A DNA stretch of 64,000 bases from an uncultured Dehalococcoidia bacterium (GCA_950072105.1 CATMOE010000002.1:79778-143777); one strand, 5' to 3'; positions 33,522 through 50,527 are shown, counted from the stretch's first letter. The notes: a model not told the origin generated them from the letters alone. A program made the numbers and translations.

Positions 33522-34124
33522 GTGCTACGGTCGCTATTCGGAAAAGGGAAGAAAAAAGGCGACGGCTCTCCCTCTTCGCAAGATGACAGTATCCGGGCGG
33601 CAAAGGTTGGGGACGTCGTTTCCATCTCCGGGCTGCGGCTGGAATACGACGATGTGTACTTTTTCATCGAGAAGATAAACCGCTACTCCAGTGAGACTGA
33701 GACTTGGTATGAGGCGCTGTGCGTGGATGGCGATAATCAAGTGTGGATCGATTGGACTGATGGTCACGATCTCACGGTAACAGCCACCGATGATCCTGAA
33801 CCGGTAGGTCTGGGGAGCATTGGGACTACGGAAGAAGAGTTGATTCAACTGGACGAAGAACACTCCATCGACAATTTCATCGAGGTTGAAGGGGACAAGT
33901 ACTATTACCGGAACAGTACCGAAGTGACGTTCTACCAGGACAATCGTGGCCAAGGCGAGGGATTTTATAATTGGGACTTGGTCCACGAGGATGGTGAACA
34001 CGTCTTATCCGTGTCCAAGTGGGAAGGGAAGCCTTTCGAGGCTACGTTCAGCGAGGTGATATCACCGGATAGGATCGTCTTATACAAAGGGGACCGCGGG
34101 GACGCTGGGAAAGGGAGGAAATAA
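33522..34124 (+). CDS. DUF4178-family protein
   Basis: KVGDVVSI..W.E..WIDW..IEVEGDKYYY..YNWD..LSVSKWEG pattern; translationally coupled to a DUF350 gene. Confidence 0.7.
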   Translation: MLRSLFGKGKKKGDGSPSSQDDSIRAAKVGDVVSISGLRLEYDDVYFFIEKINRYSSETETWYEALCVDGDNQVWIDWTDGHDLTVTATDDPEPVGLGSIGTTEEELIQLDEEHSIDNFIEVEGDKYYYRNSTEVTFYQDNRGQGEGFYNWDLVHEDGEHVLSVSKWEGKPFEATFSEVISPDRIVLYKGDRGDAGKGRK

Positions 34125-35026
34125 TGATTGAGAGCATTATCGACACGCTGCAGGCATTCCCACGGGGGCTAGTGTTCGTTGGGTTGGGGTTGGTGGTACT
34201 TCTACTGGCCAAACTGGCGCGAGACTTGATAACGCCATACAAGATCGATCAGGAAGTCGGCGAAAAACAGAATCTAGCGGTGTCTTTGCGGCTGACCGGA
34301 TACCTTGCCGGAGTGATTCTGGTTTTCCTGGGTGCGTTATATCAAAGTCCGACGCTGGTAGGCCCTGAAGGGCTGGGATTCGACCAAGCCTTTGGACAAG
34401 AGGTATTAAGGGTCTTCATTTACTCTCTAGCCGGGATAGTTGCGTTGAACCTGGTTCGGCTGGTGATGGACCGGGTGATACTGTACAAGTTCAAGCTAGA
34501 GGAAGAAGTGGTGCGGGGGCAAAACGTGGGCGCCGGGGCCGCTGAGTTGGGCATGTACGTGGCCACGGGACTGATGATTGCCGGTGCGATTTCCGGCGAT
34601 GCAGCCGGCACGGAGCTCAATGCGGCGTTGATCGCCCTGGCGTTCTTCGGGCTCGGATTGGCATTGCTGGTGGTATTCGCTCTGTTCTATCAGATCACCA
34701 CGCCCTACGATATACACTCGGAGATAGAGGGCAGCAATACTGCGGTGGGTGTCGCCTTCGGTGGCAACTTGGTCGCGATCGGCCTGGTGACCTTTAAAGC
34801 CCTTTTCGGGGATTTTACCGGGTGGGGCGAAAGTATCGCGGCGTTCCTCACATTCGGAATAATCGGGTTTGTTTTGCTATACGTGATGCGGTTTCTGATC
34901 GATCTGCTTCTACTGCCCAAATTCAACGTCTCCCAGGCTCTGGCGAATGGACGGAACGTGGGTGTCGCTGTCATTGAAAGCGGGGTGGTAATCAGCGCGG
35001 CATTGATCCTGTTTCTGGCGATCTGA
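34124..35026 (+). CDS. Tandem DUF350 (YjfL-like) membrane protein
   Basis: Repeated ITPYxIxxEI/V...NxAVG(V/L) units in a hydrophobic multi-TM protein. Confidence 0.85.
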   Translation: MIESIIDTLQAFPRGLVFVGLGLVVLLLAKLARDLITPYKIDQEVGEKQNLAVSLRLTGYLAGVILVFLGALYQSPTLVGPEGLGFDQAFGQEVLRVFIYSLAGIVALNLVRLVMDRVILYKFKLEEEVVRGQNVGAGAAELGMYVATGLMIAGAISGDAAGTELNAALIALAFFGLGLALLVVFALFYQITTPYDIHSEIEGSNTAVGVAFGGNLVAIGLVTFKALFGDFTGWGESIAAFLTFGIIGFVLLYVMRFLIDLLLLPKFNVSQALANGRNVGVAVIESGVVISAALILFLAI

Positions 35027-35288: not shown

Positions 35289-36386
35289 AGACTCGGCCCT
35301 TGCGCTCTGGATAATCTCTTCCCGGCTTGCTGATTCTCTGGCCTCTTCGTGCTTCTCCTCTAGATACACGAAACCAGCGCCTACGATACGCTCCAACAGC
35401 TGCTCTTCTACGTCTTGCCGGTTTACCACGGGTTCGAGAATTCCGGCAAAGAAACTTTCGTCGCTGATTAGTTCTTGCCAGGTTGACCCGAAGGCATCGA
35501 GGGTCCCGTCGTACAGGCGCAGCAGGAAAAGAGTCCTTATGGGGTCCAGCCCCTCGGCGATAAATACCAGCACACGCAGGTCAGCGCCGCGTCCTGTGTC
35601 GAATTCAACCATATCAGCGTCCTCTTCAGATGCGGTGTCTTTGAAGTGGTCGTACAGGTCGATGTAGGACTCGGTTTCGGCCAGCAGGCGGCCGATGAAC
35701 CTCCGGCCTTCTCGGGTGATGGCGAAAGTGTTGGTTTCTGGAGAGAGGGCTATCAGTTCTTGTGCCTGGAGCAAGTGGGCTATGGATAGCAAGGCATGAT
35801 CAACCACGCCGGGCGGAGATACCTGGAGGCGCAGTTCGTGTTTGTCCATGAAGTAGAGAAGGGTGTGGGTTTGCAGCCATTCCAGAAGTTCGGCTTTGGT
35901 GTCCCAGAAGCCTTGCCGTATCGCGTATTCCAGCGGCTGGTAGTGGCGGTGGATGTGCAGGTGAAATCCCCCAGCCCCCCCTTTCGTAAAGGGGATCTTT
36001 GCGTCCCCTGGTTGCAGATGATTTGTGATCGGGTCAGCCAGGTCTAGAGGCTGGTTGGCATCGTTTTGGAAGGATAGGGTGGAGCGACCGGTTCTCCACT
36101 CATCGAAAGCGTCCAGGATGGTTTCGTAGATGTCTGGTAGGTCTGGATTGGCGCGGACGTCCAACAGGGAGATCACTCGTTGCTGTTGGTCTTCGTCCTC
36201 GGGAAAGACCTGGTCCAAGAAATCGGACAGGGAAGTAGCCGCGGACGGGGACGGCAATTGGATGCGCAGGCCGTCCTCCGGGTCCATACCGTCCAGCGCC
36301 ACATGGAGTTCAAATGCGCCACCTGATTCTGGCGTGGGATGTTGTGGTGATTGGTCTGGGCCGGGAACTGCGCCGCCGTTGTTCAT
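35286..36386 (-). CDS. Hypothetical protein: unannotated N-terminal domain + winged-helix-like region
   Basis: LLQAQELI...FAITREGRRFI wing motif; ATGA overlap with the upstream lipoprotein gene. Confidence 0.7.
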   Translation of the reverse strand: MNNGGAVPGPDQSPQHPTPESGGAFELHVALDGMDPEDGLRIQLPSPSAATSLSDFLDQVFPEDEDQQQRVISLLDVRANPDLPDIYETILDAFDEWRTGRSTLSFQNDANQPLDLADPITNHLQPGDAKIPFTKGGAGGFHLHIHRHYQPLEYAIRQGFWDTKAELLEWLQTHTLLYFMDKHELRLQVSPPGVVDHALLSIAHLLQAQELIALSPETNTFAITREGRRFIGRLLAETESYIDLYDHFKDTASEEDADMVEFDTGRGADLRVLVFIAEGLDPIRTLFLLRLYDGTLDAFGSTWQELISDESFFAGILEPVVNRQDVEEQLLERIVGAGFVYLEEKHEEARESASREEIIQSARAES

Positions 36387-37189
36387 CCAGGCCGGTTCCC
36401 GGTGTTTATCCGCATGGCGCCGCCACCCCCTCTCGCCCCGGAGCGACCCGAAGAGCGGAAGGAAGACCTTGACGACCGGGTGCGGGACACCGCGCTGCTT
36501 TTCTTGAAGGCACCGCTGGTCTTCTGGGTCTGCTGATAGGTTTGGCGGTTGCTGCCGACGTTGTTTCTGGCTTGCTGATATCGAGACCCGGCGAATGACG
36601 CCTGTTTTCGGTTAAAATTGCTGTTTCTTTGCGCTTGCCGGCTATAGGCTGAGGACTGGCGGTATCTGGACCGCTGGTTCCTCATCGTGGATCCCCGGGA
36701 TATGGGAGTAGAGTAGTAATAGCCCCGGGGAGAGATGGCGGAGATCAGCATATAGGTGAACAGGAAATTTCCGGCGCCAAAGGAGCTACGGTAGTACCCG
36801 TTGCCGTTGTGGCCCCTCATGTTGTATTGATTTTCGTTGCCCTTGACGATGGAGAACAATCGATCGTCCTTGGCGTCGTCAATCTCATTGTTGCCGTCCA
36901 GGTCTTCCCATCCTTCCAGGGTCAACCCTTCACCGTCCTGGCTAGCCCGGATCAGAACCAGGCCGTCACCCTCGTAGATCTTGTTGACTTTTTCCTCGAA
37001 TTCCGTGGCGCTCTTGGAGTTTTTGAACGCCTCTTGAACGTCGTCCAGGTTGATCCGGCCCGCCGCTCCGTCGGTGGCTGCCCAGTTGTCGTAGGACGCT
37101 CCGGAGCCACATGCGGCGATCAGTGGCGATGCGGCTACGACGCCGCCCAAGGAAACCGCCGTCCACTTGCTGAAACGTTTGCCAGCCAT
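36383..37189 (-). CDS. Lipoprotein with a DxDxN Ca-binding-like loop and a Gln/Arg/Ser/Gly-rich tail (YjfM/DUF1190-like architecture)
   Basis: Lipobox LIAAC; EDLDGNNEID; hydrophobic FLFTYMLISA; tail SSRSSFRSSGRSGARGGGG. Confidence 0.75.
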   Translation of the reverse strand: MAGKRFSKWTAVSLGGVVAASPLIAACGSGASYDNWAATDGAAGRINLDDVQEAFKNSKSATEFEEKVNKIYEGDGLVLIRASQDGEGLTLEGWEDLDGNNEIDDAKDDRLFSIVKGNENQYNMRGHNGNGYYRSSFGAGNFLFTYMLISAISPRGYYYSTPISRGSTMRNQRSRYRQSSAYSRQAQRNSNFNRKQASFAGSRYQQARNNVGSNRQTYQQTQKTSGAFKKSSAVSRTRSSRSSFRSSGRSGARGGGGAMRINTGNRPG

Positions 37190-40100
37190 CTAGTTCCTCC
37201 TTGTCGATCCCGAATCCCCAGCCAGGGCCATTGGCCGGTCCGCTATGAGTGTTTGTACGTCGTCGTTCAACTGAACTTTAGGTGTAGAGAGGGCGTATCC
37301 CTTGGCCGAAGGGAAGGCAAATAGGCGAAACATGAACTCGGCGTTCACCCGCTCCCAGAAGCCTTGCCACGCTTGAAAACTACGTTGGATGTAGAGGGCC
37401 ACCGCCGATTTGTGGTCGGTGGACGCCAGCAGTTGGTTGGAGATAGAGTCCTGCAACTCGACGATGTGCGCCTTCCAAATCTCGTCGCAGGCCTTCAAGT
37501 AGATCGAACGGGCCAGGGCGGCATACTCTTTGGCGCCCTGGCTACTCTCCAGATCTGCCATTCTGTCGATGAACAAGTGGCCAAGTTCTTCGGGAAGGAT
37601 GTTCATGTCCCATCCCCTCAGTGAGGAGCAATCGACTTGGTAGTCCAGTTGAACTTCTTCAACCAGCCGGTCGAACTGGGCATCGTATTCTTCCAAAGTG
37701 ACCTGGGGAAAGTGGGCGGACACGAGTTCAATAGCCCTTTCCTGGGCCTGATCGCGCCAGAGAGATGGACCGGAGCCCGGTGAACCGGCAACGGCTACTT
37801 CCCCGCGCCGCCGGTAAAACAATCTGGTCTGGTGGTCCAGCACCGAGGCGTAATCCTGTACCAAGGCGCGTTGGGTCTCGCCCTCATGTTCGGCGATACC
37901 TTGCACCTCTTGAACGTGCCGGTCGACGTCTTGGCCCGAATAGTAGGTTCGGCCCATTCCATCCAAGTCGCGGCGCTTGGTCAGCTTGAGCACGCCGTCC
38001 ACGTGAAGGTTAAGCAACCGGTCTTCCAAGGACAGGAAAGTTTGGGACACACCGAAGCTGCCTTGACGGCCGCTGCGGCCGTTCAGTTGGAGGTCGATTC
38101 GCGGAGTATCGTTGAGTTCGGTGCCAATCACCCGAAGACCTAAAGCGAAGTCCAGCGATCGCGGCTTGGCGGTAATGCCTGAGGTGTCATGGAGCCGAAC
38201 GGTGAGCCTGAGGCCGTTCGGGGAACCCTCTTTTTCTACGCGAAGGCCGGAATCGGCTAGCAGTAGAGATTTCAAGACGCTGAACTCCCGGGGAGACAGG
38301 CAGTTGATCTCAACGGAGCCGTCTTCTCGCTCGAGAGTCTGGTGGACCAATCTGATGCAACGCTGGGCGATCTGGCCGTCTAAGCCCGGCGCCAGCAGGA
38401 TGTCGGTACCCCGGCCGGCCATGTTGGTTGCTACCGTGGCCGCGCCGAAGGAGCCGGCATTCCTGATGATTTCCGCTTCGGTGTCCGAATTGACGGCGTT
38501 GAGCAGGTTATGAGGAATCGCTTTATCCGAGAGCATTCGGCTGATCTCTTGGGATTGCTCCACCGTGAGGGTCCCCACCAGGACCGGCTGTCCCAGTTCA
38601 TGACTGGAGATCACCTGATCGATGATCGCCGAAGTTTTTTCAGCGTCGGTGAGATAGACCCGATAGCCAAGATCCACTCGTTGCAGGGGATGCATCGGCG
38701 GCAGCACGGTTACCGGTAAACCGTACTTCTGCTGAAATTCGTCCTGGGAACCGATGGCGGTGCCGGTCATTCCGCAAAGAGATTGGAACTGCTTGACGAA
38801 CCCTTCAACGGAGATATGACCCAGGGTTTCACCCTCCGGATTGGGAGTAAGCCCTTCTTTGGCTTCCAGAGCGGGCTGCAGGCCGTGCTGGTAGATGGCG
38901 TCGGGCTTAGGCCGCCCCGTGGCTTTGTCGATAAGCACCAGTTGGTCCTCGGCCACCAGGTAATCCACGTCCCGCTCCAGCAGCAGGTAGGCCCGGAGCA
39001 TCTGATAAACCTGGTTGCCCAGATTGTATTGCCGGGCCAGGCGGGTGGTTAGGCTCGCCGCCTTCTTGCGGCGCTCTGCCAAGGGCATTTCGCGGTTGGT
39101 CCAAAGGGACTCCAGAGACTCCTCCATCGAACGGCCGTCGTAGAAAGGACCCAAACATTGGGTAAGGAAATCCCGGCCCTTTTCCGCCAGGGTAACGAAA
39201 CGTCTATCTGGGTCGATAACGTAATAAAGCTCCGATGTGAGGCCGGTCTGTTCCTGCTCAGCTTCAGATTTAATCTCTTTGAAGCGTCGGGGGTTGTCAC
39301 GTAATCGCTGCTCTAGGGCGGGGTTATCCGGTTCGGCTAGGAGCAGCTTGGCTAGGATGTGGGAGGCTCCATCTAGGCTCGTGTCCGGCCGGGCGAGTTC
39401 ACCCGCTAATTCCCGGACAACGTCCCTTTGCAGCCGAATCAGTTGGGTGACGGCCTTCTTCACTTTGGCCGTGGGACTACGGTTTCCCAGGGGAGCGCCG
39501 GATATAATCATCGGCGTTGACGCTTCGTCGATCAGCCCGTGATCCGCTTCGTCGATGATGGCCGCATCCAGCTTGCCTTGAACGCGGGACGAGGCGGTTG
39601 TCTTAAGATTGTCACGGAGATAGTCGAACCCCATCTCCCGCATAGTGCTGTAGACGATCGCCATCTGGTAGTTATATCTTCGTTCGTCGTCCTCCATGTA
39701 TTCGAGCACGGCCCCTACGGTGATGCCCAGTGACTGGTAAACGGGAGCCAGTAGGTCGGCGTCCCTGGCCGCCAGGTAATCGTTGGCGGTGATGACATAA
39801 ACTGAGGTCCCAGCCACGGCATGTAACACTGCCGGAAACGCCCCGGCGACGGTTTTGCCTTCGCCGGCGTTCATCTGGACGATATTTCCTTGAAATAGGT
39901 GCAGTCCAGCCAATAACTGCTCCTCGGTAGCTTCAAAGGTGAGATGCCCTTTCTCGTCTTGCCTTCGCAATGCTTGGTAAAACCCGGCGGGCATGGAGAT
40001 GTCCCAAGGCGGCCTAACTTGGATCTCCCGGTGCACCATTAACATGGCATCAACGATGGTCTGTTGATCGGGGCCGGTTGCGGCTGTCCCGGATGACCCT

Positions 40101-40450
40101 CGGGAGAGGTCTGCCGTTCGCCAACAGGTTTGCAGGGATTCAGGAAGGGATTTCCGGTCGAAGCCGGTGTCAAACAGCCGCCAGGCGCCAAGGCGGCGAC
40201 TGATGACCTCGCTAACGATGGCGAAGACTTCCGGCAGGACTTGACTGACGCTCGGATGCGGCGGACGTGTCCGTAGGCGCGCCATCGCGTCCTTGAGATC
40301 CGTGTCGGAATAGGCTGTTACGTCGTGCCGGCGAATCGCGTCCAAAACCGCCCGGCTGTCTTTCGGCGGCCCGAGCTTCGGATGTGAAGTCGGCGGTCCC
40401 TGGTTAACCGGCCCAAACGTCAATGCTGATGATCCCAACAAGGAATTCAC
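37190..40450 (-). CDS. Divergent SecA paralog (accessory SecA-like ATPase), no C-terminal zinc-binding motif
   Basis: QMNAGEGKT, TANDYLAARD, GFDYLRDN, IDEADHGLIDEASTPMIISG, GMTGTA, ATNMAGRGTDI, RIDLQLNGRSGRQG. Confidence 0.92.
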   Translation of the reverse strand: MNSLLGSSALTFGPVNQGPPTSHPKLGPPKDSRAVLDAIRRHDVTAYSDTDLKDAMARLRTRPPHPSVSQVLPEVFAIVSEVISRRLGAWRLFDTGFDRKSLPESLQTCWRTADLSRGSSGTAATGPDQQTIVDAMLMVHREIQVRPPWDISMPAGFYQALRRQDEKGHLTFEATEEQLLAGLHLFQGNIVQMNAGEGKTVAGAFPAVLHAVAGTSVYVITANDYLAARDADLLAPVYQSLGITVGAVLEYMEDDERRYNYQMAIVYSTMREMGFDYLRDNLKTTASSRVQGKLDAAIIDEADHGLIDEASTPMIISGAPLGNRSPTAKVKKAVTQLIRLQRDVVRELAGELARPDTSLDGASHILAKLLLAEPDNPALEQRLRDNPRRFKEIKSEAEQEQTGLTSELYYVIDPDRRFVTLAEKGRDFLTQCLGPFYDGRSMEESLESLWTNREMPLAERRKKAASLTTRLARQYNLGNQVYQMLRAYLLLERDVDYLVAEDQLVLIDKATGRPKPDAIYQHGLQPALEAKEGLTPNPEGETLGHISVEGFVKQFQSLCGMTGTAIGSQDEFQQKYGLPVTVLPPMHPLQRVDLGYRVYLTDAEKTSAIIDQVISSHELGQPVLVGTLTVEQSQEISRMLSDKAIPHNLLNAVNSDTEAEIIRNAGSFGAATVATNMAGRGTDILLAPGLDGQIAQRCIRLVHQTLEREDGSVEINCLSPREFSVLKSLLLADSGLRVEKEGSPNGLRLTVRLHDTSGITAKPRSLDFALGLRVIGTELNDTPRIDLQLNGRSGRQGSFGVSQTFLSLEDRLLNLHVDGVLKLTKRRDLDGMGRTYYSGQDVDRHVQEVQGIAEHEGETQRALVQDYASVLDHQTRLFYRRRGEVAVAGSPGSGPSLWRDQAQERAIELVSAHFPQVTLEEYDAQFDRLVEEVQLDYQVDCSSLRGWDMNILPEELGHLFIDRMADLESSQGAKEYAALARSIYLKACDEIWKAHIVELQDSISNQLLASTDHKSAVALYIQRSFQAWQGFWERVNAEFMFRLFAFPSAKGYALSTPKVQLNDDVQTLIADRPMALAGDSGSTRRN

Positions 40451-41515
40451 CTAACCCATTGCCTCCTGCAATCCCTGCCATGTATAGCGGTGCGAGCTGA
40501 TGTACACCAATAGGTCTCCAGGGGACAAAAATAGGTCTCCGAACTTGAAATGGGGCTTTTTATCCCGAATCACCCCAAGCAGGTTTATATCCTTGCTCAG
40601 TAGCTTCACGGCTACCTCTTGGTAGGTTAACCGCTCTCCAACCGGAGGGTCAACCATCGTGCTGGCCATTGTGCCTTCGACCTTATTGCTGGTCATGGCC
40701 TGGGCCAAGATGGTCACGCCCGGGTCCTGGGTTTCCTGGATCAAGAGATTGTTCGCCATATGTATCGTATAAACCAGGGAGACATCCGCCAAGTTGCTGA
40801 ACAAGAGCTCGTGACTGAGACTCAGACATTCGGCGACGACCCTCACGTGGGGGCTCAGGTGGTTGATCACCGAAGCTACCGACGCTACGACGCTGTCGCT
40901 GTTGGGATCGTCGTAATCGGTGCTCAGTATGATGGCCTTGGACGCCCTGCTGAGTTGGGCCCGTTGGTAAGTCTCTTGTTCGAGAGGAGAGCCACGGACG
41001 AAAGAGACGTTGGGGTGGCTGAATGGCAGGGTCTGTAATTTGTCGGTGATCACGACAATGTCAACTTTTTTGTGGTTGTTGTCGGAAACGAACTCCTCCA
41101 CGATGTGGCGGACCCTGGTCTCGTTCGGGAAATGGATGATTAGCAAATGATCTTTGGATTGCACGGTCGCCATACCGTTTTGCTCCCTCATGCGAAGGTC
41201 GAATATCCAGTCAACCAACATCCCGGCGGTAGTGGTAAAGGCCACCAAACCGACCAGAACGATAAAAAACACAGTTCCGATACGGGCGCCAACCGTAGAC
41301 GCGGACAGATCCCCGTATCCAATGGTTGTGATAGAGATGATGCTATACCAGAAACTGTCTCCGAGATTATATTCCGGGTGGACCGGGGCCTCGAAGTAAA
41401 AAAAAGTGAGGGCGTTCCCAATCACACTGGCAACCAGCACCGCGAACATGGACAGTAAGCCGAGGGTTCTCCTCCGCCGGATCCGGTGCATCAACCTTTT
41501 TATCGAATAAAACAT
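40451..41515 (-). CDS. 2-TM potassium channel with RCK/TrkA-N-like domain
   Basis: Selectivity filter TTIGYGD; cytoplasmic FVRGSP..RAQLSRASKAIIL. Confidence 0.92.
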   Translation of the reverse strand: MFYSIKRLMHRIRRRRTLGLLSMFAVLVASVIGNALTFFYFEAPVHPEYNLGDSFWYSIISITTIGYGDLSASTVGARIGTVFFIVLVGLVAFTTTAGMLVDWIFDLRMREQNGMATVQSKDHLLIIHFPNETRVRHIVEEFVSDNNHKKVDIVVITDKLQTLPFSHPNVSFVRGSPLEQETYQRAQLSRASKAIILSTDYDDPNSDSVVASVASVINHLSPHVRVVAECLSLSHELLFSNLADVSLVYTIHMANNLLIQETQDPGVTILAQAMTSNKVEGTMASTMVDPPVGERLTYQEVAVKLLSKDINLLGVIRDKKPHFKFGDLFLSPGDLLVYISSHRYTWQGLQEAMG

Positions 41516-41536
41516 GTGGCGGTGTTCGGGCGCGGG

Positions 41537-42988
41537 TCACCGGTCCAGAGGGACCGGTGATTGGTTAAGTAGCTTCATGATGACTAGCCCTGCTTGATGG
41601 CCGGGGCCGTCGCACTCGTCCAGACGGGTCAAAAGATGTCCCCCAGCCCGCAAGATTTTATCGGTGACGGTCGGCTCAGATCGGCGGAACTCTTCTCCCA
41701 AATGCGAGTCCAGTGTCCAATCAGCGGTGACCGAACATTCCAGCCCGGCCCGCTGGGCAACATCCAGGTACTCCTGACGCTCCCTGCTGAACTCTTTTTC
41801 ACTCTTGAAGGCCAAAGGCATCACGTAGAATTCCCTGGACAGATACAATCCCAGTTCGTTATCGAATACTTGCATCAGGTCGGAGAAGGACACCCAGCCT
41901 TCCAGGGCGAAGAAAAAGTTTTCGGGAATATCCTGGGGCACGCGATGGTAGTAGAAATCTTCATCCGCCTCAACCATCTTCACCGTGACTGGAAGCTTTT
42001 TTTGGTAACCCAGGATGCGTTCCGCCGCGTCGTCCTTAAGGAATAAGAAGGGTATGTTCCCATTGGTGGCGTCCACTAAGACTTGAGTACCATCGATATC
42101 ATACAACAACGCCGTGTGCTGCCAGAATCGCATGTAACGCTTGGAAAAGCGAAAATCGAACGTGGTTAGAAGCTCCCGTAGTTTCTCGACAGGCACGGGG
42201 CCGGTAGCGTTTTCCCCGGCGATGATGTATTCCGACTGAAGTCCGTAGTGATCAGTGAGGAACTTCAGCGCCTGCACTTTTTCCGAGCAGATCGCCCCGG
42301 CGCCTTCCATGATGTTATCAATGGTCTCGTCTCCCGATTTGTAGACCAGTTTCTTGCCGATGAACCGGGAGTAGTTTTCAAATTGGGCATCCCAGATCGT
42401 TTTGGCCAGTCCTTTCAACAGCTTTATCTTGTGGCTGGTGGATCCCAGTTGAAGAATGGCATCGGTCTCGTGGCTGCCGAACTCGTGAATCAGGGAATCT
42501 CGCACGAATCCAGAGTATCTGGATTTGTTGCGGAGCCACTTGCGCCGATGGAAGCCCGTCCAATTGCGGCTGTATTGCAGGTTGATGCGGTCTATCGTTA
42601 AATCAACCACCGAAACGTCTTGACCCTCCACCTGAAGCTGGTGATTTGTGGGGACCTGGTCCAAAGCGAGGGACTCTTCGCCCTCTTTGAACGCCATACC
42701 GGAAAACATGTCCTTCAGTTCACCGGCGTCCGTGCTCAGGTAGACCAGGTCTTGCATCGCATAGAGGGCGGCGGCGGAGGGCTGGGTGATGCGGGATTCT
42801 TGAAGAAGTTGGCTGATGGGAGGTTGCTTCAGATATTTGTCCAGCAAGCCTCCTAAAGACAAATAGGCGTCGCCGGGGTCCATACGTAGAGTACATCTCC
42901 GGTTGGACACCGTGTCCCACAGTTGAAGGATCTGATTGTTGGTGTTTTCCACTAAGGGCGCAAACCCGCTGTTCTTAATCTTGATCAT
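41537..42988 (-). CDS. Transglutaminase/NAT-superfamily (Cys-His-Asp) enzyme with an unannotated N-terminal domain
   Basis: GAICSEK (C234), WQHTALLY (H291), VLVDATNG (D306). Confidence 0.7.
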   Translation of the reverse strand: MIKIKNSGFAPLVENTNNQILQLWDTVSNRRCTLRMDPGDAYLSLGGLLDKYLKQPPISQLLQESRITQPSAAALYAMQDLVYLSTDAGELKDMFSGMAFKEGEESLALDQVPTNHQLQVEGQDVSVVDLTIDRINLQYSRNWTGFHRRKWLRNKSRYSGFVRDSLIHEFGSHETDAILQLGSTSHKIKLLKGLAKTIWDAQFENYSRFIGKKLVYKSGDETIDNIMEGAGAICSEKVQALKFLTDHYGLQSEYIIAGENATGPVPVEKLRELLTTFDFRFSKRYMRFWQHTALLYDIDGTQVLVDATNGNIPFLFLKDDAAERILGYQKKLPVTVKMVEADEDFYYHRVPQDIPENFFFALEGWVSFSDLMQVFDNELGLYLSREFYVMPLAFKSEKEFSRERQEYLDVAQRAGLECSVTADWTLDSHLGEEFRRSEPTVTDKILRAGGHLLTRLDECDGPGHQAGLVIMKLLNQSPVPLDR

Positions 42989-43038: not shown

Positions 43039-44268
43039 TTATACGGCAGCGTGAGGTCCCAAGCCCCACCGGGCGGCGTATTGATCGAAAGTGAACGTGC
43101 TCTTCTGAACGAACTCCCCTTGGGTGGTTAACGCGTAAACCGATGGGAGGCCGATGCCGTTGAACGCGTGGGCCTTGGTCATCGTGTACGATCCGGCATT
43201 GTTGAATATTACCTTGTCGCCAACCTTCAGCGGGTCCTGGAACCGGTATTCACCTAAGATGTCTCCGGCCAGACAAGTGCATCCAGCCAGCAGATATTTG
43301 TGGGGAGCGTCGTCGTCGTGGCCGACCACGTCGGGCTCGAAATCGTATTCGAATACCTCCGGCATGTGATTGATGCTCGTGTCCAGCACGGCCAACATCG
43401 AACCCTCACTGGGGAATACGTCCAGAACCGTGGACACGATGTACCCGGCGGCTCGGATGAGAGCGGACCCGGGTTCAAAGAACACGTCCACTTTAAGGCG
43501 AGCTTTGAGAAAATCCAAAGCCTGGTGCAGACCGTCAAGGTTTTGCCCGTCCTCGAATAGATAGCCACCACCCAAATTGATCCATTCGAGGTTCTCCAGG
43601 ATGCTACTGGCGCTGGAGTAGAGGTGGCGCACCGTGGAGAGCAACTCGCCGAAGTTGGGCGAGTCGCAGTTTGAGTGGAACAGGATGCCTCGGACCCCAG
43701 CCAGGCGGGCCGGGTCGTCATGGAACGCGGCCACCAGGTCTTCCAAGGGAACGCCCAGCTTCGATGCGGGCCGGCAAGGGTCGTAGCGCTCGTCGCCCAG
43801 GAAAGAAAGTTGAGGATTTACCCTCAGCCCACAGCTGGCGCTATCTTTGATGCGGTCGCGGTACATGTCCCATTGGCTCAGGGAGTTGAATGACACGTAG
43901 TCGCATAGGGAGCCGATCTCCTCTACTTCATCGCTCCTTAGGCCAGGCGCCGTGATGTGAAGGGTGCCGCCGCTCGTATTGGCTTTTTGAGCCAGTTTGG
44001 CTTCGAAAAGGGAGCTCACAGCGAATCCGTCCAGGCGTGGGGACATGAGCTTCAAAGCATCGACGAAGGAGAAGGACTTTATCGCGAACAGTACCTGGCA
44101 CCGGCCTTCTTGGCGCAGCCGATCGGCATGGGTGAGGAGTTGGTCGAGGACTGCCTCGTCGTATACGAAGGCCGGAGTAGAGATGTGGGCAAGGCCGCCG
44201 GGAAAGGCTTTGGCGTCGTCCAAAAGGGAGGAAGGCGTTGAATTTGCGCCGGCCTGTTTGGTACTCAT
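43039..44268 (-). CDS. nspC: Carboxynorspermidine/carboxyspermidine decarboxylase
   Basis: TPAFVYD, LFAIKS (PLP Lys), RVNP..YDPC..SKLG, FHSNC, WINLGGG, EPG, HMPEV, GCTCLAGD, YTMTK..FNG. Confidence 0.88.
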   Translation of the reverse strand: MSTKQAGANSTPSSLLDDAKAFPGGLAHISTPAFVYDEAVLDQLLTHADRLRQEGRCQVLFAIKSFSFVDALKLMSPRLDGFAVSSLFEAKLAQKANTSGGTLHITAPGLRSDEVEEIGSLCDYVSFNSLSQWDMYRDRIKDSASCGLRVNPQLSFLGDERYDPCRPASKLGVPLEDLVAAFHDDPARLAGVRGILFHSNCDSPNFGELLSTVRHLYSSASSILENLEWINLGGGYLFEDGQNLDGLHQALDFLKARLKVDVFFEPGSALIRAAGYIVSTVLDVFPSEGSMLAVLDTSINHMPEVFEYDFEPDVVGHDDDAPHKYLLAGCTCLAGDILGEYRFQDPLKVGDKVIFNNAGSYTMTKAHAFNGIGLPSVYALTTQGEFVQKSTFTFDQYAARWGLGPHAAV

Positions 44269-44354
44269 TGAACGTACATGCACGCCATAGACGTTAGGGA
44301 GTGTTTCTAAGATTGAGGAATGGGAGGGTGGTTGATGGGTATTTTAACATACGG

Positions 44355-44388
44355 GAATCCCCCCAACCTCCTTTACGAATGGGGGGCT
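44355..44388. repeat. REP-like palindrome, family B
   Basis: GAATCCCCCCAACCTCCTTTACGAATGGGGGGCT. Confidence 0.75.
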
Positions 44389-44468
44389 CTTTCGGTCTCA
44401 TCCACACGTGGCTATGGAAGATAGGGACGTTTGCTTCTATCTTGGCGGTCGAGCCGGAAGGCGTTAGG

Positions 44469-45872
44469 CTACACCCTGGTTTGCTGGCCGGGTATGCCTG
44501 ATCCGGCGATGCCATTGGTGTTGCCGGACGGCGTTTCCGCCGATGCGCCTTGGGAGTTTTCCACGGTGACCGGGTTGATAGGGCGCCGGACGGAGTTGGG
44601 AGCGATTCCCGCTTTTAAGGCGGACATGACGCCGGCCGCCTCCCAATAGTTATCAACGATGTGAAGTTGCCCCTGCTGCCAGGGTAGTTGGGTCAGGTTG
44701 TTTCTCATGAGGTTTCGGTTTTCCCGCACGGCGATGACCGGGATGCCCTGTTCCAGCGCGGCCAGGGTGGGCAGGCCCAGGCATCCGTCGGGTATCACCA
44801 AGCAAGAAACGGCACTAGCGGTGAACACGCCGGGATTTCGGAGTGCTTCTCGATCGGTGACGATTCTGGGGCTTTTTTGTAGGCCCTTGAGGATGGACTG
44901 CAAGAAGGTGGTTGATATGGCTTCAGCGGCCATGCGGGGGTCGACGATGCCGGTGTCCGCGTCCAAGACTTCCTGGGACTCCATCATGGGGGAGTGGGCC
45001 GAGGGCACGTCGTAGATGCTGGAGATGGTGTGGGTAAGCATGGATTCCACGCCACCCCAGGGATTGACCATGCTGCCGCCGCTGTTGAAGTAGTCGCCGT
45101 GGTAGCTGGTGGGAACGGTTATGACCGACGATATGGCCACGGCGTCGTATTCCCCGCGGTGTCTGTCCAGCAGTTCAAGCACGTGTTCCAAGTCTTCCAC
45201 CCGTCCCGCCGCCCGGGACGATGAAGTGTACTCGGAGATCATCACAAGTGGCGGAGTCAACTCGATCACCAGTGGGCAGATCAGCCCATAGGATGCCCGG
45301 GCGGCGTTAACCGAGTTGACTGTCATTGTGTGAAATAGCCGGTCGGTATGCGAGTTCATCAGAACCAGGACACGGTTAGACCGAACCGGCTGCAACCCAG
45401 CCGTGCCCATCAGCAAACGGCAGATGACGCTGCCTTCCACGTATAGCCCGTTGCCCGGAATCTCGTTGATGTCCGAGGCGTTGACCACGTTTGGGTGGGT
45501 GACCAAAGTGTCGCAGACGGAGGCCAGCAGTTGAGCCACGGGCGTGGCATCACCGGCGTGCCCCCCGATTTCAGCGCCTATCCCGGTTGGTACCAGCAGG
45601 ATGGCGTTGAAGCTCCCGGTATTTTCCACTTGGCGGTGGCGAAATTCCAGGATGGAGTTATTGGGCAACCGGCTGGAATCGTTGCCGTCATCGAAGGTTG
45701 TGACCTCGCACCGGTATCCGGTGGCGTCCGAAGACGTGACCACCAACCGCACTGGCGAGACTCCACCGGGCAACTTTTCTCGTGTCTTCTGGGACAGCCA
45801 TTCCAATAGGTTGCTGCTGTCCGGCGGCGGGGGTAGATCGAGTCCAATTTCCGAAAGCATCACGGATTTCAA
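44469..45872 (-). CDS. DUF3326-family protein with an N-terminal extension
   Basis: VPTGIGAEIGGHAGDA, THPNVVNAS, LYVEG, NPWGGVE..TH, PSAHSP, DPRMAAE, IAVREN. Confidence 0.85.
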   Translation of the reverse strand: MKSVMLSEIGLDLPPPPDSSNLLEWLSQKTREKLPGGVSPVRLVVTSSDATGYRCEVTTFDDGNDSSRLPNNSILEFRHRQVENTGSFNAILLVPTGIGAEIGGHAGDATPVAQLLASVCDTLVTHPNVVNASDINEIPGNGLYVEGSVICRLLMGTAGLQPVRSNRVLVLMNSHTDRLFHTMTVNSVNAARASYGLICPLVIELTPPLVMISEYTSSSRAAGRVEDLEHVLELLDRHRGEYDAVAISSVITVPTSYHGDYFNSGGSMVNPWGGVESMLTHTISSIYDVPSAHSPMMESQEVLDADTGIVDPRMAAEAISTTFLQSILKGLQKSPRIVTDREALRNPGVFTASAVSCLVIPDGCLGLPTLAALEQGIPVIAVRENRNLMRNNLTQLPWQQGQLHIVDNYWEAAGVMSALKAGIAPNSVRRPINPVTVENSQGASAETPSGNTNGIAGSGIPGQQTRV

Positions 45873-46753
45873 TTTCTTACATCCTCATGATTGGTTGATT
45901 CAGTGGTTTCGAAGGTAGTCTTCCGGCTGGGAACCTTGTCACAGGGGGACGACCACATCTCCGCCACGTCGATGGCGCGCATGAATTCTACGTTGGCGAA
46001 GGTGCGGATGTGGGTGATCAATTGCTCCAACATTTTCAGGCGTCCGGGACGGCCGATGTATTGGGGGTGCATGGTTAGGGTGAAGGCCCGGCCATAGTGA
46101 TATAGGCCCTCAAACTCGGCTGCCCAAGTTCCGTAGACTTCCTCCGGGTTGCGCATGGGGCCCAGCCGCCCCGCTGCCGGCGCGTAGACGAAATTTGGGG
46201 CGTCGTCCAAGAGCCAATGGATGGGAATCTCCACCAGGCTTTGGGGAGTGCCCGGATTGAGCATGTATGGCGCGTCATCGCCCATCAGACTGCTGTCGTA
46301 CAGGAAGCCGTGGGAGGCCAGCAGGTCCACCGAGCGCTCGCTCAACTCCCAACTAGGGGACCGGTAGCCTCGGGGGGCTTCTCCGGTGATGTCGCCAAGG
46401 ATGGAGCTGCCCTGGTGCAGCACCTCTTCTTCCTTCTCCGGCGTTAAAGAGGCTGGAGGTTCGTGCATGTACCCGTGGTGGGCGATCTCATGCCCCCGGC
46501 GGGAGATCTCTTTGACCATCTCAACGTGGGTTTCGGCGACATAGCCTGGAACGTAAAAGCTGGCCTTGATGGAGTGGCTGTCCAGCATGTCCAGGATACG
46601 GGGGGTTGCGACGCTGGGGCCGTATTCGGCCATGGACATCAGGCTGGGAAGCTGGGCGAAGTTGGGGTCGCGGTTCAACCACGAAGAGACGCCGTCGACG
46701 TCGAACCCCAACATCACCACGCATTGAATGTCTCCGGGCCAGATACCGGACAT
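45869..46753 (-). CDS. Polysaccharide deacetylase (CE4, PuuE/HpPgdA-like)
   Basis: GFDVD, EYG, HEIAHHGYMHE, GYRSP, YDSS, LTMHP. Confidence 0.9.
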   Translation of the reverse strand: MSGIWPGDIQCVVMLGFDVDGVSSWLNRDPNFAQLPSLMSMAEYGPSVATPRILDMLDSHSIKASFYVPGYVAETHVEMVKEISRRGHEIAHHGYMHEPPASLTPEKEEEVLHQGSSILGDITGEAPRGYRSPSWELSERSVDLLASHGFLYDSSLMGDDAPYMLNPGTPQSLVEIPIHWLLDDAPNFVYAPAAGRLGPMRNPEEVYGTWAAEFEGLYHYGRAFTLTMHPQYIGRPGRLKMLEQLITHIRTFANVEFMRAIDVAEMWSSPCDKVPSRKTTFETTESTNHEDVRN

Positions 46754-46778
46754 GTTGTTCCTCCCCGGTCTTGATTGA

Positions 46779-48056
46779 CTACTGGGGCGGGATGGTGTCG
46801 AAGCCGGTGTAGGGACGGAGGACCTCTGGAATCACCACCGTGCCATCCGCCTGCTGGTAGTTCTCCAAAATGGCGATCACCACCCGGGGCAGGGCCAGCC
46901 CGGAGCCATTTATGGTGTGAGGCAGTTGGGGACGGTCACCCTGGCCGGGCCGGTAGCGGATGTTGGCGCGCCGAGCTTGGAAATCGGTGCAATTGGAGCA
47001 AGAACTGACCTCCAGCCACTCCTGGCAGCCGGCGGCCCACACTTCTATGTCGTAGGTCTTGGCGGACTGAAACCCGATGTCCCCGGTGCAGAGTTGCAAT
47101 ACCCGGTAGGGCAATTCCAGTTTCTGGCACACGTCCTCGGCGTCGGCGAGCAGAGTTTCCAGTTCAGCTTCAGAGGTTTCCGGGGTGACGAACTTGTACA
47201 TCTCCACCTTGTTGAACTGGTGCACCCGCTTGATGCCCCTGGTGTCACGGCCGGCCGCCGCCCGCTCGTTGCGGAAACAGGGAGTTTGAGCCACGTAGCG
47301 GAGGGGCAGGCTATCCGGGGGAATAATCTCGTCCCGGTAAAGATTGGTGATGGGTACCTCGGCGGTGGGAATCATCCACAGGTCGGCTTCCTCGTCGTGG
47401 TACAAGAAATTGCTGAACTTGGGCAGATTCCCCGCCCCCTCCATCACCTCTCGCTTGACCACTGCGGGAACCATAACCTCGGTATAGCCGTGCTGCCGCG
47501 TGTGCAGATCCAGCATCCAGGCGATGAGGGAGCGTTCCAGCTTAGCGCCGGCGCCGAACATGGTGTAGAAGCGGCTGCCGGATATCTTCACTCCCCGCTC
47601 GAAGTCGATAAGCCCCAATCGCTCGCCCAACTCCCAGTGGGGCACCGGCGTGAAATCCAGAGTAGCCGGCTCGCCCCATTGGCGGATGATTACGTTGGAC
47701 TCTTCGTCCAGCCCTTTGGGAACGTCAGGAAGGGGTATGTTGGGCAGGCGCATCAAGATGGTACTGATCTGCTCCTCAAGCACGCCCGCGTCCTGCTCAA
47801 GCCGGCTGATCTGATCCCCGACTTGGCGCATCTCGGCAACGACGTCCGGCGGAGGTTCCTGACCGGCGCCACGGGCCTGGCCCACTTGGCGGCTAACCTG
47901 GTTACGCCGCGCCCTCAGATCGTCTGCTTCGGTGATAGCCTGCCGCCGGTTGGTGTCCAGCGTCAATAGCTCGCCTAAAGGGTCTTCCTCGCCTCTGGAT
48001 TCAAGGGCGCTCTTTACGAAGTCGGGGTCTCGGCGTATCAGCTCAATGGATAGCAT
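46779..48056 (-). CDS. serS: Serine--tRNA ligase
   Basis: SGSRF, IPTAEVP, FRNE..AGRDTRG..RVHQFNKVE, EVSSCSNCTDFQARR, NGSGLA. Confidence 0.98.
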   Translation of the reverse strand: MLSIELIRRDPDFVKSALESRGEEDPLGELLTLDTNRRQAITEADDLRARRNQVSRQVGQARGAGQEPPPDVVAEMRQVGDQISRLEQDAGVLEEQISTILMRLPNIPLPDVPKGLDEESNVIIRQWGEPATLDFTPVPHWELGERLGLIDFERGVKISGSRFYTMFGAGAKLERSLIAWMLDLHTRQHGYTEVMVPAVVKREVMEGAGNLPKFSNFLYHDEEADLWMIPTAEVPITNLYRDEIIPPDSLPLRYVAQTPCFRNERAAAGRDTRGIKRVHQFNKVEMYKFVTPETSEAELETLLADAEDVCQKLELPYRVLQLCTGDIGFQSAKTYDIEVWAAGCQEWLEVSSCSNCTDFQARRANIRYRPGQGDRPQLPHTINGSGLALPRVVIAILENYQQADGTVVIPEVLRPYTGFDTIPPQ

Positions 48057-48076
48057 ATTAGGTTTGCCGGAGACCG

Positions 48077-48136
48077 CCCTCGCCCCGGCCTGCGGCCACC
48101 CTTCTCACTGAGGGTGAGGGGACGGGGGTGAAGGGG
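48077..48136. repeat. REP-like palindromic element (CCCTCNCCCC...GGGTGAGGG type)
   Basis: C-rich/G-rich imperfect palindrome between lysS and serS. Confidence 0.55.
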
Positions 48137-48167
48137 AAACGCCTGCTTTCATCAGTCTTGCCGGATA

Positions 48168-49679
48168 TCATTCGGAATCATCCTTTTGTCCTGATTGGAT
48201 TGTCCGCATCTGAGGGAACAGGATCACGTCTCTGATAGATGTTTGGCCGGCCAATAGCATGACCAGCCGGTCGATGCCAATGCCCAGGCCGCCGGTGGGG
48301 GGCATGCCGTATTCCAGTGCCACTAGAAAGTCCTCGTCTAAGCGGTCTGTTTCATCATCGCCTAATAAGAGCCGAAGCGATTCTTGATCCTCAAATCGGT
48401 CCCGCTGTACCTGCGGGTCGTTCAGTTCGGTATATGAGTTGGCGATCTCCATGCCGGCGGCAAAGCCCTCGAACCGCTCCACGTAGCCGGGAGTCCCTGG
48501 CTTGGCTTTGGCCAATGGAGACATGACCTCTGGGTAGTCCAGCATAAATGTGGGTTGCACCAGATGGGGTTCTACAAAGGTCGAGAATAGCTTGTCGATC
48601 ACCTTGCCGCGGCTGTCCTTGGGTTCAATATCCAAGCCCAGTTCGGCGGCCCGCTGTTTAAGCGACGCGTCATCGTTAAAGTCATCGATGTCGATGCCGC
48701 TTCGGTCCTTTAACTCTTGCCTAAAATCGAGCTGCTTCCAAGGGGGCGTGAAGTCTATCAGATGGTCTCCGTATTGGACTTGGTTGGTGCCCAAGACATC
48801 GAACGCCACGGTTGAAACCAGGGATTCAACCATAGCCATAACATCGTTGTAGTCGGCGTAGGCCTGGTAGCTCTCCAGTAGGGTGAATTCCGGGTTGTGG
48901 TCTTGGTCGATGCCCTCGTTGCGAAAAACGCGACCAATCTCGAATACCCGGTCGAACCCGCCGATGATCAGCCGTTTTAGATATAGCTCGGTGGCGATGC
49001 GCAGGTAAAGCTGTTGGTCCAGAGTGTTGTGGTGGGTGATGAAAGGGCGGGCGTGGGCGCCTCCTGCAACCGGCACCAGAATAGGCGTGTCAACTTCCAG
49101 AAACCCTTGGCTTTGGAAGAAAGCCCTGATCCGCTCGATGATCCGGCTGCGCATGGCGAAGACGGGCATGATTTCGGGATTGGCGATCAGGTCCAGGTAC
49201 CGCTGCCGGTACCTGGTTTCCACGTCCCTTAAGCCGTGGAATTTCTCCGGAAGCGGCCGCATGCCCTTGGAAGTTATGGTTAGTTGATGGGCCTCGATCG
49301 TGATCTGGCCGGTTCGGGTGCGTATGACCGGACCGTATACCCCCAAGTGGTCGCCCAGATCCAGGTCCTTGAGCAGTTCGTAGGCTTCGCCAAGCACGTT
49401 CTGCCTGAGCAATGCTTGGATAGTGCCGGAACTGTCCCGAAGGTCCAGAAAGGCCGCCCGTCCCATGACGCGCATGGAAATGATTCGGCCGCCCAATGAG
49501 ACGCTGGTGGTGGTGGATTCGGGCGGGTCACCGCTCTCCACGGCTTCGAACATGGCAGTAGCGGCGGCGTTGTCGCAGGTCCGGACGAAACGTGGCGGGT
49601 AGGGGTCGATTCCACTCTGGCGGAGGTGGTCGAGTTTGCTGAACCGGCTGGCCAGCAGGCCTTCTTCTCGGTCGGGCAT
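48168..49679 (-). CDS. lysS: Lysine--tRNA ligase (class II)
   Basis: PLPEKFHGL, RYRQRYLDL, LRIATELYLKRL, FRNEG, HNPEFT, GMPPTGGLGIGIDRL. Confidence 0.98.
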   Translation of the reverse strand: MPDREEGLLASRFSKLDHLRQSGIDPYPPRFVRTCDNAAATAMFEAVESGDPPESTTTSVSLGGRIISMRVMGRAAFLDLRDSSGTIQALLRQNVLGEAYELLKDLDLGDHLGVYGPVIRTRTGQITIEAHQLTITSKGMRPLPEKFHGLRDVETRYRQRYLDLIANPEIMPVFAMRSRIIERIRAFFQSQGFLEVDTPILVPVAGGAHARPFITHHNTLDQQLYLRIATELYLKRLIIGGFDRVFEIGRVFRNEGIDQDHNPEFTLLESYQAYADYNDVMAMVESLVSTVAFDVLGTNQVQYGDHLIDFTPPWKQLDFRQELKDRSGIDIDDFNDDASLKQRAAELGLDIEPKDSRGKVIDKLFSTFVEPHLVQPTFMLDYPEVMSPLAKAKPGTPGYVERFEGFAAGMEIANSYTELNDPQVQRDRFEDQESLRLLLGDDETDRLDEDFLVALEYGMPPTGGLGIGIDRLVMLLAGQTSIRDVILFPQMRTIQSGQKDDSE

Positions 49680-49705
49680 ATCAATCGTTGGAGGCTATTT
49701 GTGGA

Positions 49706-50062
49706 TTATTCAATTGCCAATACTTCGAGCCTGATTTCGCCCGACGGGGCGTTGACCTTGGCTACGTCGCCGACCCGTTTTCCTAACAGGCTTTGGCCGA
49801 TGAGAGAAACGTTGGATATCGTTCCTCGGGAGGGATCGGCTTCGGCGCTGCCGACGATGGTGTATCTGAAGGACCGTCCGTCTTGGTCCATTACGGCGAT
49901 GGTGGTTCCGACCTCGAGCGTGGCCCGGCCGCCCTGGGTTTCTTCGATGATGACGGCATTGTTAATCATGTTGTCTAGGGTAAGGATGCGCCCTTCGGTG
50001 AAGGCCAGCTCGTTCTTCAAGTTTTCCAGCCCTTCCCGAGACAAGTAGCTGGGCTGTGCCAT
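49706..50062 (-). CDS. greA: Transcription elongation factor GreA, 118 aa, lacking the coiled-coil tip
   Basis: YLSREGLENLKNELAFTEGRI...YTIVGSAEADPSRGTISNVSLIGQSLLGKRVGD; immediately upstream of lysS; the GDLSENAEY segment is absent. Confidence 0.8.
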   Translation of the reverse strand: MAQPSYLSREGLENLKNELAFTEGRILTLDNMINNAVIIEETQGGRATLEVGTTIAVMDQDGRSFRYTIVGSAEADPSRGTISNVSLIGQSLLGKRVGDVAKVNAPSGEIRLEVLAIE

Positions 50063-50527
50063 GATTGCATCCCCCGGCCAAAGGGGGAAAAACAATGTGG
50101 GAGAGAAGGCCGGGTCGGCGCTCTCATCCCGAAGCCGATTGTAGTCTCCAGCAAAGGCGTTGTAAAGCATGCCCGGCCGAGGCGATAGGACGTGGTGGAA
50201 TCAAAGGATGGACGGGGCAGGCCGCCGCAAGGGTGAGGCTCATGAATTGACAATGTTTATAGCCGTCATTAGGATTCTTTATATGGCAACCAACTCCGTC
50301 AACGTCTTTATACCGCCGGGCGCCGGCTTTACGTGAGTCCAGACCTGTGGGGCCTGGACCGTTCAGCGGTCCCACCGGGCGCGTTTCGTCTAACCAAGCT
50401 ACTGCTTCTTTCGCCGCGATCTGCTGCCGTCCTTGCCCCCAGGTAAGCCGTTGGACTACCACAACACTCCTTGGATGCGTCTTTGGTATTCCACGTGGTT
50501 TTCCCAAGCAAGTTCGACAGAAGGTAA

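Follow-up and report, generated by a model that had tools for sequence, protein, structure and literature searches.

In a 64,000-nucleotide stretch of DNA from an uncultured Dehalococcoidia bacterium (GCA_950072105.1 CATMOE010000002.1:79778-143777, hereafter the window, in whose coordinates all positions are given), two genes on the minus strand, P0001 and P0002, encode proteins whose N-terminal regions are very probably folded as ubiquitin-like (Ubl) β-grasp domains. Between the two genes lie those for a lipoprotein-like protein, a divergent paralog of the translocation ATPase SecA and a K+ channel, and further genes of the same conserved cluster flank the pair on either side (Table 1). In P0001 the N-terminal domain precedes a candidate winged helix-turn-helix (wHTH) and in P0002 a candidate arylamine N-acetyltransferase (NAT), so that one and the same small fold is predicted at the head of a possible regulator and a possible enzyme.

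Both proteins belong to large families for which ‘hypothetical protein’ is the sole name in any source. P0001 has 399 homologues at E<=0.001 (at least 399 clusters at 90% identity), none of which has a Pfam domain on record, and P0002 has 825 at the same threshold (at least 825 clusters at 90% identity); a relative of P0002 is held by 244 species-level genomes. One homologue of P0001 (P0020, 60% identity) bears the source label of a Planctomycetaceae metagenome-assembled genome (MAG), a label that may result from a binning error, a labeling error or a transfer. Neither P0001 nor P0002 matches any Pfam or NCBIfam model, and a Pfam scan of 42 members per family, run at E<=5, gave no match above threshold for either family. 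The initial annotation had called the two N-terminal domains unannotated, and indeed no Pfam or NCBIfam model covers either region. A sequence search of the PDB with both full-length family profiles returned only rows at chance level (E=0.74 and 0.45), P0001 aa 22-150 drew no usable match from the ESM Atlas, and no prior description of either family was found in the literature outside subscription journals.

Related loci were gathered from the species genomes: of 316 stretches that fit a pattern, 244 could be confirmed, and from these 80 loci were retained. The titles of 79 name a Chloroflexota or Dehalococcoidia MAG, and that of the remaining one says ‘uncultured bacterium’ only. The N-terminal domain is a constant part of both proteins, being present in 66/66 homologues of P0001 and 79/79 homologues of P0002 read from these loci (one locus, L001, was excluded for its ambiguous bases).

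AlphaFold2 (AF2) models of the two regions were built on family alignments A3, which covers P0001 aa 20-152 in 67 rows, and A4, which covers P0002 aa 12-150 in 80 rows. The P0001 region was modeled with a predicted local distance difference test score (pLDDT) of 84.9 and a predicted template modeling score (pTM) of 0.78, the P0002 region with 91.6 and 0.86, respectively. In the P0001 model, strands are found at aa 24-31, 40-45, 103-107 and 140-148 and helices at aa 53-60, 65-72 and 83-98, with a variable loop of low confidence at aa 128-132. The P0002 model has strands at aa 19-25, 31-36, 99-102, 105-107, 116-120 and 123-133, helices at aa 45-54, 58-63 and 69-82, and an additional short hairpin at aa 83-94. 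The order of elements E-E-H-H-H-E...E (E, strand; H, helix) is common to the two models, each of which was folded independently, and the domain ranges drawn by eye in the initial annotation differ from the modeled limits by at most one residue.

The two models were compared with 48,161 PDB representatives by the VIA structure search, which is independent of Foldseek. Nearly all of the 50 rows listed per model are ubiquitin, Ubl, SUMO, PB1, DIX, UBX, RBD, MoaD or SAMP proteins, and the two lists have 22 of their 50 entries in common; the Ubl matches align 71-82 residues of chains that are 74-88 residues long, at a root-mean-square deviation (rmsd) of 2.2-2.9, and cover nearly the whole of the small target. 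A few of the rows stem from large complexes, and for these the title does not allow the aligned segment of 75-90 residues to be classified. The best rows returned by Foldseek are also Ubl proteins, among them a bacterial Ubl (8tyx_A, E=2.3e-3, prob 1.00) and SAMP1 (E=3.8e-2). One 77-residue Ubl, aligned with both models, extends over 123 residues of one and 116 of the other and leaves 47 and 42 residues unaligned, so that both domains carry about 42-47 extra residues. Between strands 2 and 3, where ubiquitin and the modifiers of its type have one helix, the models of P0001 and P0002 have three, and the extra residues make up the two that are added. The β-grasp/Ubl fold is characterized by a mixed sheet (strands 1-2, then 3-5) that grasps a helix and by superposability on ubiquitin-type structures over the whole of the small domain, and both models conform to this. 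The β-grasp fold with a helical insertion that had been proposed from the sequence is thus recovered for both domains by modeling and structural search, and taking the fold alone, the predicted structures make it very probable that both N-termini are ubiquitin-like β-grasp domains. That the two regions have no real feature in common, with over-confident models and a pattern of strands and helices due to chance, is most improbable: all five AF2 models per domain reach a mean pLDDT of 79.8-84.9 (P0001) and 89.6-91.6 (P0002), and a search independent of Foldseek returned essentially only Ubl folds for both, at the deviations given above.

A common fold raises the question as to whether the two domains are also of common descent. 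The initial annotation had aligned them by eye over three blocks, LRIQLPSPSAATSLSDFLDQVF (aa 40-61), LSFQNDANQPLDLADPITNHLQ (aa 104-125) and HLHIHR (aa 142-147) in P0001, and TLRMDPGDAYLSLGGLLDKYL (aa 33-53), MAFKEGEESLALDQVPTNHQLQ (aa 98-119) and DLTIDR (aa 129-134) in P0002, and all the strings that it quoted are found in the translations at the residues assigned to them. When the full-length families were compared as profile hidden Markov models (HMMs) by hhalign (A1 vs. A2, 42 vs. 42 sequences), the probability was 0.6% (P=0.096) and the lone alignment returned was the first of these blocks. Comparison of the N-terminal alignments A3 and A4 matched 92 columns with 21% identity, at a probability of 15.3% (P=0.0017, score 25.4), and here all three blocks were recovered, collinear, so that hhalign returned from the family profiles the very alignment drawn by eye. 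The HMM-HMM comparison, which had been put forward as a check, thus reproduced the alignment but remained sub-significant. In a shuffle control run on an independent pair of trimmed alignments (real score 22.6), reversed profiles scored 11 and other pairs of P0001 and P0002 domains 12.2-17.6, and column shuffles matched the real score in 0/150 cases.

Control alignments of other β-grasp families were taken from genomes of the same class, namely ThiS/MoaD (30 segments), TGS (17) and Fer2 (4). Against these, in the same order, A3 reached hhalign probabilities of 1.7%, 0.1% and 1.3% and A4 of 0.5%, 0.2% and 0.5%, over 1-17 columns; neither domain has a Pfam match to the ThiS/MoaD family (PF02597). 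Among the β-grasp families tested, A3 and A4 are therefore each other's best match. Between the controls themselves, ThiS and TGS matched at 96% and TGS and Fer2 at 10% (P=0.0032), and the match of A3 to A4 is comparable in level to the latter, as would be typical of remote relatives within the β-grasp fold. At the profile level, the similarity of the two N-termini is weak, consistent and not significant, and may be called suggestive.

The alternative is that P0001 and P0002 acquired the same fold from different β-grasp lineages, in which case the alignment made by eye would combine the pattern of the fold with a coincidental ‘sL..LLD’ helix. A number of observations speak for such separate origins and against a shared ancestor. 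The β-grasp is among the commonest small folds, and at the level of single sequences the similarity of the N-termini appears to be no more than chance: BLASTP of P0001 against P0002 detected none (best E=11), and the best Smith-Waterman alignment of the N-termini differs from the one drawn by eye and has its score equaled by 14/1000 shuffles. The hhalign probability of A3 and A4, at merely 15%, is sub-significant, and the accompanying P=0.0017 is not free of selection because the pair was picked by eye among many possible pairs; moreover, 13/150 shuffles of 10-column blocks reached the real score in the shuffle control. Cross-searches with HMMER were blank. In the 4.08-Mb genome of the window, the two N-domain profiles found their own gene only, even at E<=10, so that the genome holds no third copy and no cross match, and the A4 profile drew 87 matches at E<=0.001 from 1.84 billion proteins, with none of the P0001 type. 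Secondary structure on the columns aligned by hhalign agrees at 46/92 positions (32/39 where both are regular), which is no better than when the partner is shifted by 2-14 residues and is thus non-discriminating, and midway along the alignment, helix 3 of P0001 falls opposite a hairpin of P0002, out of structural register. The best PDB matches also differ, those of the P0002 domain being of the SAMP1/MoaD class and those of the P0001 domain eukaryote-type Ubl, DIX and PB1. Finally, the conserved motifs of the two families are unlike: the most conserved residues of the helical part read NPDLPxIY in P0001 and SRIT..SAD.LYALQDLVY in P0002, which are unrelated, and this argues against one common binding surface.

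Separate origins, on the other hand, do not readily account for a mutual best hhalign match with 92 collinear columns where the controls gave 1-17, for three helices inserted at the same place in both models, or for the N-terminal position of both domains in proteins that co-occur in one gene cluster. On this evidence, we consider a shared β-grasp domain of common origin fairly probable, and separate origins a less likely explanation that still deserves consideration. With a common origin, one ancestral domain would have been copied into two proteins of the same conserved Dehalococcoidia cluster. The original claim of a domain shared by two cluster proteins thus stands as to fold and order of elements, while the homology that it implied is likely but unproven, with a sub-significant profile similarity (hhalign probability 15%) and, as indirect evidence, the common order of elements and the 22 shared PDB entries.

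The bodies to which the domains are joined show some resemblance to known families. For P0001, the profile of aa 151-366 matched six MarR (PF01047) segments by hhalign (prob 50.3%, P=1.6e-4, 63 columns), but none of 42 members of the family gave a direct Pfam HTH match. P0001 had been labeled a wHTH protein, and the profile match lends a MarR-like wHTH moderate support; whether the protein binds DNA is uncertain because the region of helices 2-3 of the wHTH is poorly conserved.

In P0002, three residues (C234, H291 and D306) are invariant in 42/42 aligned homologues. The profile of aa 141-483 matched two Chloroflexota sequences of PF00797 (hhalign prob 39.9%, P=3e-4, 93 columns), and in this alignment the FEN motif lines up together with the three invariant residues, whose equivalents in the arylamine N-acetyltransferase family we take to be the catalytic triad. 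The ESM Atlas likewise points from the body of P0002 to PF00797 clusters (0.87-0.88), but no PF00797 match in the Pfam scan lies above threshold, with 1/42 members reaching E=0.18. A transglutaminase core (PF01841), also suggested by the Cys/His/Asp pattern, was rejected (hhalign 0.75% vs. 39.9% for PF00797). From its profile, the body of P0002 (41537-42569, aa 141-483) looks like a Cys-His-Asp enzyme of the arylamine N-acetyltransferase type, and the earlier designation as an enzyme is partly borne out, with moderate support. P0002 differs from the NAT family in the Ubl domain at its N-terminus and in about 170 more residues at its C-terminus.

Most of the 87 proteins matched by A4 are P0002-type proteins or fragments, as judged by their length and by the position of the match. 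Six atypical ones were scanned with Pfam. In P0297 (771 aa), an arginase-family domain (E=1.2e-65) is fused to the N-terminus of a P0002-type protein, and P0293 (570 aa) is another such protein with a partial arginase-family domain in front; P0283 (252 aa) has a partial 2-hydroxyacid dehydrogenase domain ahead of the match, P0330 is a long protein made of Ig-like (Big_4) repeats, and P0331, which is long and matched in ten stretches, and P0274 show no Pfam family. For the P0001 domain, none of 322 candidates scored in a search for longer fused proteins, which is a weak test. The search for other carriers that had been suggested thus yielded fusions of the P0002 type, but neither a P0001-type match nor a fusion of the P0001 domain. 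The fusion of P0002 relatives to a domain of the arginase/agmatinase family ties the enzyme to polyamine metabolism.

When the proteins of the window were compared with the 80 loci by tblastn, the gene cluster proved to be conserved. P0002 matched in 80 of them, the SecA paralog in 71, the lipoprotein and P0001 in 67 each, the DUF350 protein in 64, the DUF4178 protein in 62, the DUF3326 protein in 53, the carboxynorspermidine-decarboxylase-like (nspC-like) enzyme in 51 and the K+ channel in 32. The cluster that is conserved comprises a polyamine module, the SecA paralog, the lipoprotein, DUF350 and DUF4178. In 67/80 loci, a homologue of P0001 is found downstream of that of P0002; where it is missing there, it was found elsewhere in the genome in 5/5 cases tested, next to DUF350 and DUF4178 in all five and to the SecA paralog and lipoprotein in 2/5. 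The DUF4178/DUF350 pair, which is convergent with P0001 and stays by it even when P0001 is apart from P0002, is therefore its tightest neighbor. In the window, these two genes overlap by one base (34124). The K+ channel, which is found between P0002 and the SecA paralog in just 32/80 loci, is optional in the cluster.

Table 1. Genes and domains of the P0001/P0002 locus, in window coordinates.
Feature	Position	Strand	Extent	Description	Basis
P0001	35286..36386	-	366 aa	N-terminal Ubl-like domain, MarR-like wHTH, conserved helical C-terminal part	Open reading frame (ORF), translation
β-grasp/Ubl domain of P0001	35943..36317	-	aa 24-148	Predicted	AF2 model; VIA and Foldseek matches nearly all Ubl folds
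MarR-like wHTH of P0001	35685..35873	-	aa 172-234	Moderate support	hhalign vs. MarR
P0002	41537..42988	-	483 aa	N-terminal Ubl-like domain, arylamine-N-acetyltransferase-like Cys-His-Asp domain	ORF, translation
β-grasp/Ubl domain of P0002	42590..42934	-	aa 19-133	Predicted	AF2 model
NAT-like domain core of P0002	42053..42409	-	aa 194-312	Putative; C234, H291, D306 invariant	hhalign vs. PF00797
DUF4178 gene	33522..34124	+		Convergent with P0001	Pfam
DUF350 gene	34124..35026	+		Convergent with P0001; protein with eight transmembrane segments (8-TM)	Pfam
Lipoprotein-like protein	36383..37189	-	268 aa	Ser/Arg/Gly/Gln-rich tail	...LIAAC at aa 23-27, Cys at aa 27
SecA paralog	37190..40450	-	1086 aa		Pfam SecA_DEAD, P-loop_SecA, SecA_PP_bind, SecA_SW
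K+ channel with RCK domain	40451..41515	-	354 aa		Pfam Ion_trans_2, Slo-like_RCK
Carboxynorspermidine-decarboxylase-like pyridoxal phosphate (PLP) enzyme	43039..44283	-	414 aa		NCBIfam TIGR01047 nspC
DUF3326 protein	44469..45872	-	467 aa		Pfam PF11805, E=1.2e-90

The SecA paralog reaches at best 505.8 bits with an NCBIfam SecA model whose cut-off is 814, and all SecA2 models stay below their cut-offs too; its DEAD-domain match begins at profile position 65, residue 161. A canonical SecA is encoded on another contig of the same genome. By its scores and the presence of that second gene, the protein is a divergent paralog and not an equivalog of a known SecA or SecA2, and the literature searched yielded no account of a paralog of this kind from Chloroflexota. 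The tail of the lipoprotein-like protein keeps its composition over 67 homologues, the last 100 residues holding about 29 S+T, 18 R+K, 15 G and 14 Q+N. A hydrophobic stretch is present at about aa 137-153, and should this stretch cross the membrane, the Arg-rich tail might lie in the cytoplasm. The nspC-like enzyme matches TIGR01047 with E=1.6e-89 and 300 bits, under the cut-off of 409 bits. A cluster with a carboxynorspermidine-decarboxylase-like domain and a DUF3326 protein has been proposed in a preprint for the biosynthesis of the hydroxylated polyamine pavettamine (10.64898/2026.06.12.731819), and the nspC-like enzyme and DUF3326 protein of the window (43039-45872) may form a non-canonical polyamine module. 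Upstream on the same strand (45869-50170) stand a polysaccharide-deacetylase-family gene, seryl-tRNA synthetase (SerRS), a class II (D/K/N type) tRNA synthetase and a GreA-like gene; the deacetylase was found in only 5/80 loci and SerRS in only 3/80, so that these two probably lie outside the cluster.

In the proteins that carry them, the two Ubl-like domains are internal. The last strand ends at aa 148/366 in P0001 and at aa 133/483 in P0002, more than 200 residues with further conserved domains follow in both, and neither has a free C-terminal Gly-Gly tail after the last strand. The 16 neighboring ORFs scanned include no E1, E2 or JAB protein. Being internal, devoid of a free tail and without such neighbors, the domains are not conjugated modifiers but built-in modules. 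Ubiquitin, SUMO, SAMP1, MoaD/ThiS and the Ubl proteins of bacterial E1-E2-Ubl operons, by contrast, all end in a free tail. PB1, DIX, UBX and the Ubl domains of USP4/USP15, TBCE and Herpud are built-in and mediate protein contacts but belong to eukaryotic families.

Among bacterial systems, the Ubl domain at the N-terminus of the membrane component of ESX (type VII) secretion and the YukD-type Ubl are likewise not conjugated and belong to clusters organized around a secretion ATPase. Foldseek matches of the P0001 domain include ESX-5 and ESX-3 chains (7npt_D8, E=6.9e-3; 7np7, 7b9s and 6umm), which we take to be EccD. ESX, however, has an ATPase of the FtsK/SpoIIIE type and carries the Ubl domain on a polytopic membrane protein, whereas the ATPase of the present cluster is a SecA paralog.

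The initial annotation had suggested a shared docking tag, for example for the SecA paralog, or a heterodimerization module, and the present evidence neither supports nor refutes either idea. The reading that we favor, though only tentatively, is that the N-terminal domains may serve as built-in adaptors of the kind seen in PB1, DIX, USP and ESX proteins. Each domain would act as a protein-protein adaptor that holds P0001 or P0002 in a membrane-associated assembly of the cluster, whose members would be the SecA paralog, the lipoprotein, DUF350/DUF4178 and the K+ channel. The contact surface on the helical part would have evolved separately in the two families. A complex prediction of the two N-domains (A3 and A4) scored 0.00 in two runs, which carries no weight either way.

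Ligand-binding β-grasp domains exist, and the domains could instead share a small-molecule pocket, for example for a polyamine or acyl-polyamine made by the cluster, with P0001 and P0002 answering the same metabolite. The cluster does have a polyamine-type module made of the nspC-like decarboxylase and the DUF3326 protein, a pair of domains whose cluster has been connected with the making of a hydroxylated polyamine (10.64898/2026.06.12.731819); a domain of the arginase/agmatinase family is fused to some P0002 relatives, and the wHTH-like part of P0001 suggests a regulator. However, conservation falls on different residues in the two families, so that a common ligand is not suggested, and the poor conservation of helices 2-3 of the wHTH makes DNA binding uncertain; we regard ligand sensing as rather unlikely.

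SecA2 systems export proteins that were modified in the cytoplasm. A more elaborate scheme, loosely analogous to these, would make of the cluster an undescribed accessory SecA system in which P0002 modifies the lipoprotein tail and the Ubl domains dock P0001 and P0002 on the SecA paralog or on membrane partners, the latter being DUF350/DUF4178. A polyamine made by the cluster, or else an acyl group, would be put by P0002 on the conserved Ser/Arg/Gln-rich tail of the lipoprotein, and the polyamine would come from the nspC-like decarboxylase, the DUF3326 protein and, in some relatives, the agmatinase fused to P0002. Taken as a whole, this scheme is highly speculative and very unlikely to hold in all its parts.

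Some of the same ingredients recur in another setting. In a paper on PSP systems (PMC11237479), operons around PspA that are linked to polyamines are described as containing DUF350 (YjfL) and DUF4178 together with a lipoprotein and a K+ channel. The present cluster shares this accessory set, namely the 8-TM DUF350 protein, DUF4178, the lipoprotein, the ligand-gated K+ channel and a polyamine enzyme, but no PspA or CesT/Tir genes were found among the neighbors scanned. It has instead a SecA paralog and the two Ubl-domain proteins, neither of which is mentioned in the passages on those operons.

With the N-terminal domains of P0001 and P0002, a very well-known fold probably gains a new and so far unannotated family, set in an undescribed gene cluster. 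Another divergent β-grasp family is no surprise in itself, because the fold is very widely reused; its interest lies in giving a first structural handle on two large families of ‘hypothetical proteins’. It also draws attention to a conserved Dehalococcoidia cluster in which a SecA paralog is associated with polyamine-type enzymes, a K+ channel and DUF350/DUF4178 proteins. If the Ubl domains are interaction modules, they would indicate which proteins of the cluster cooperate, and the function of the divergent SecA paralog would thereby become testable.

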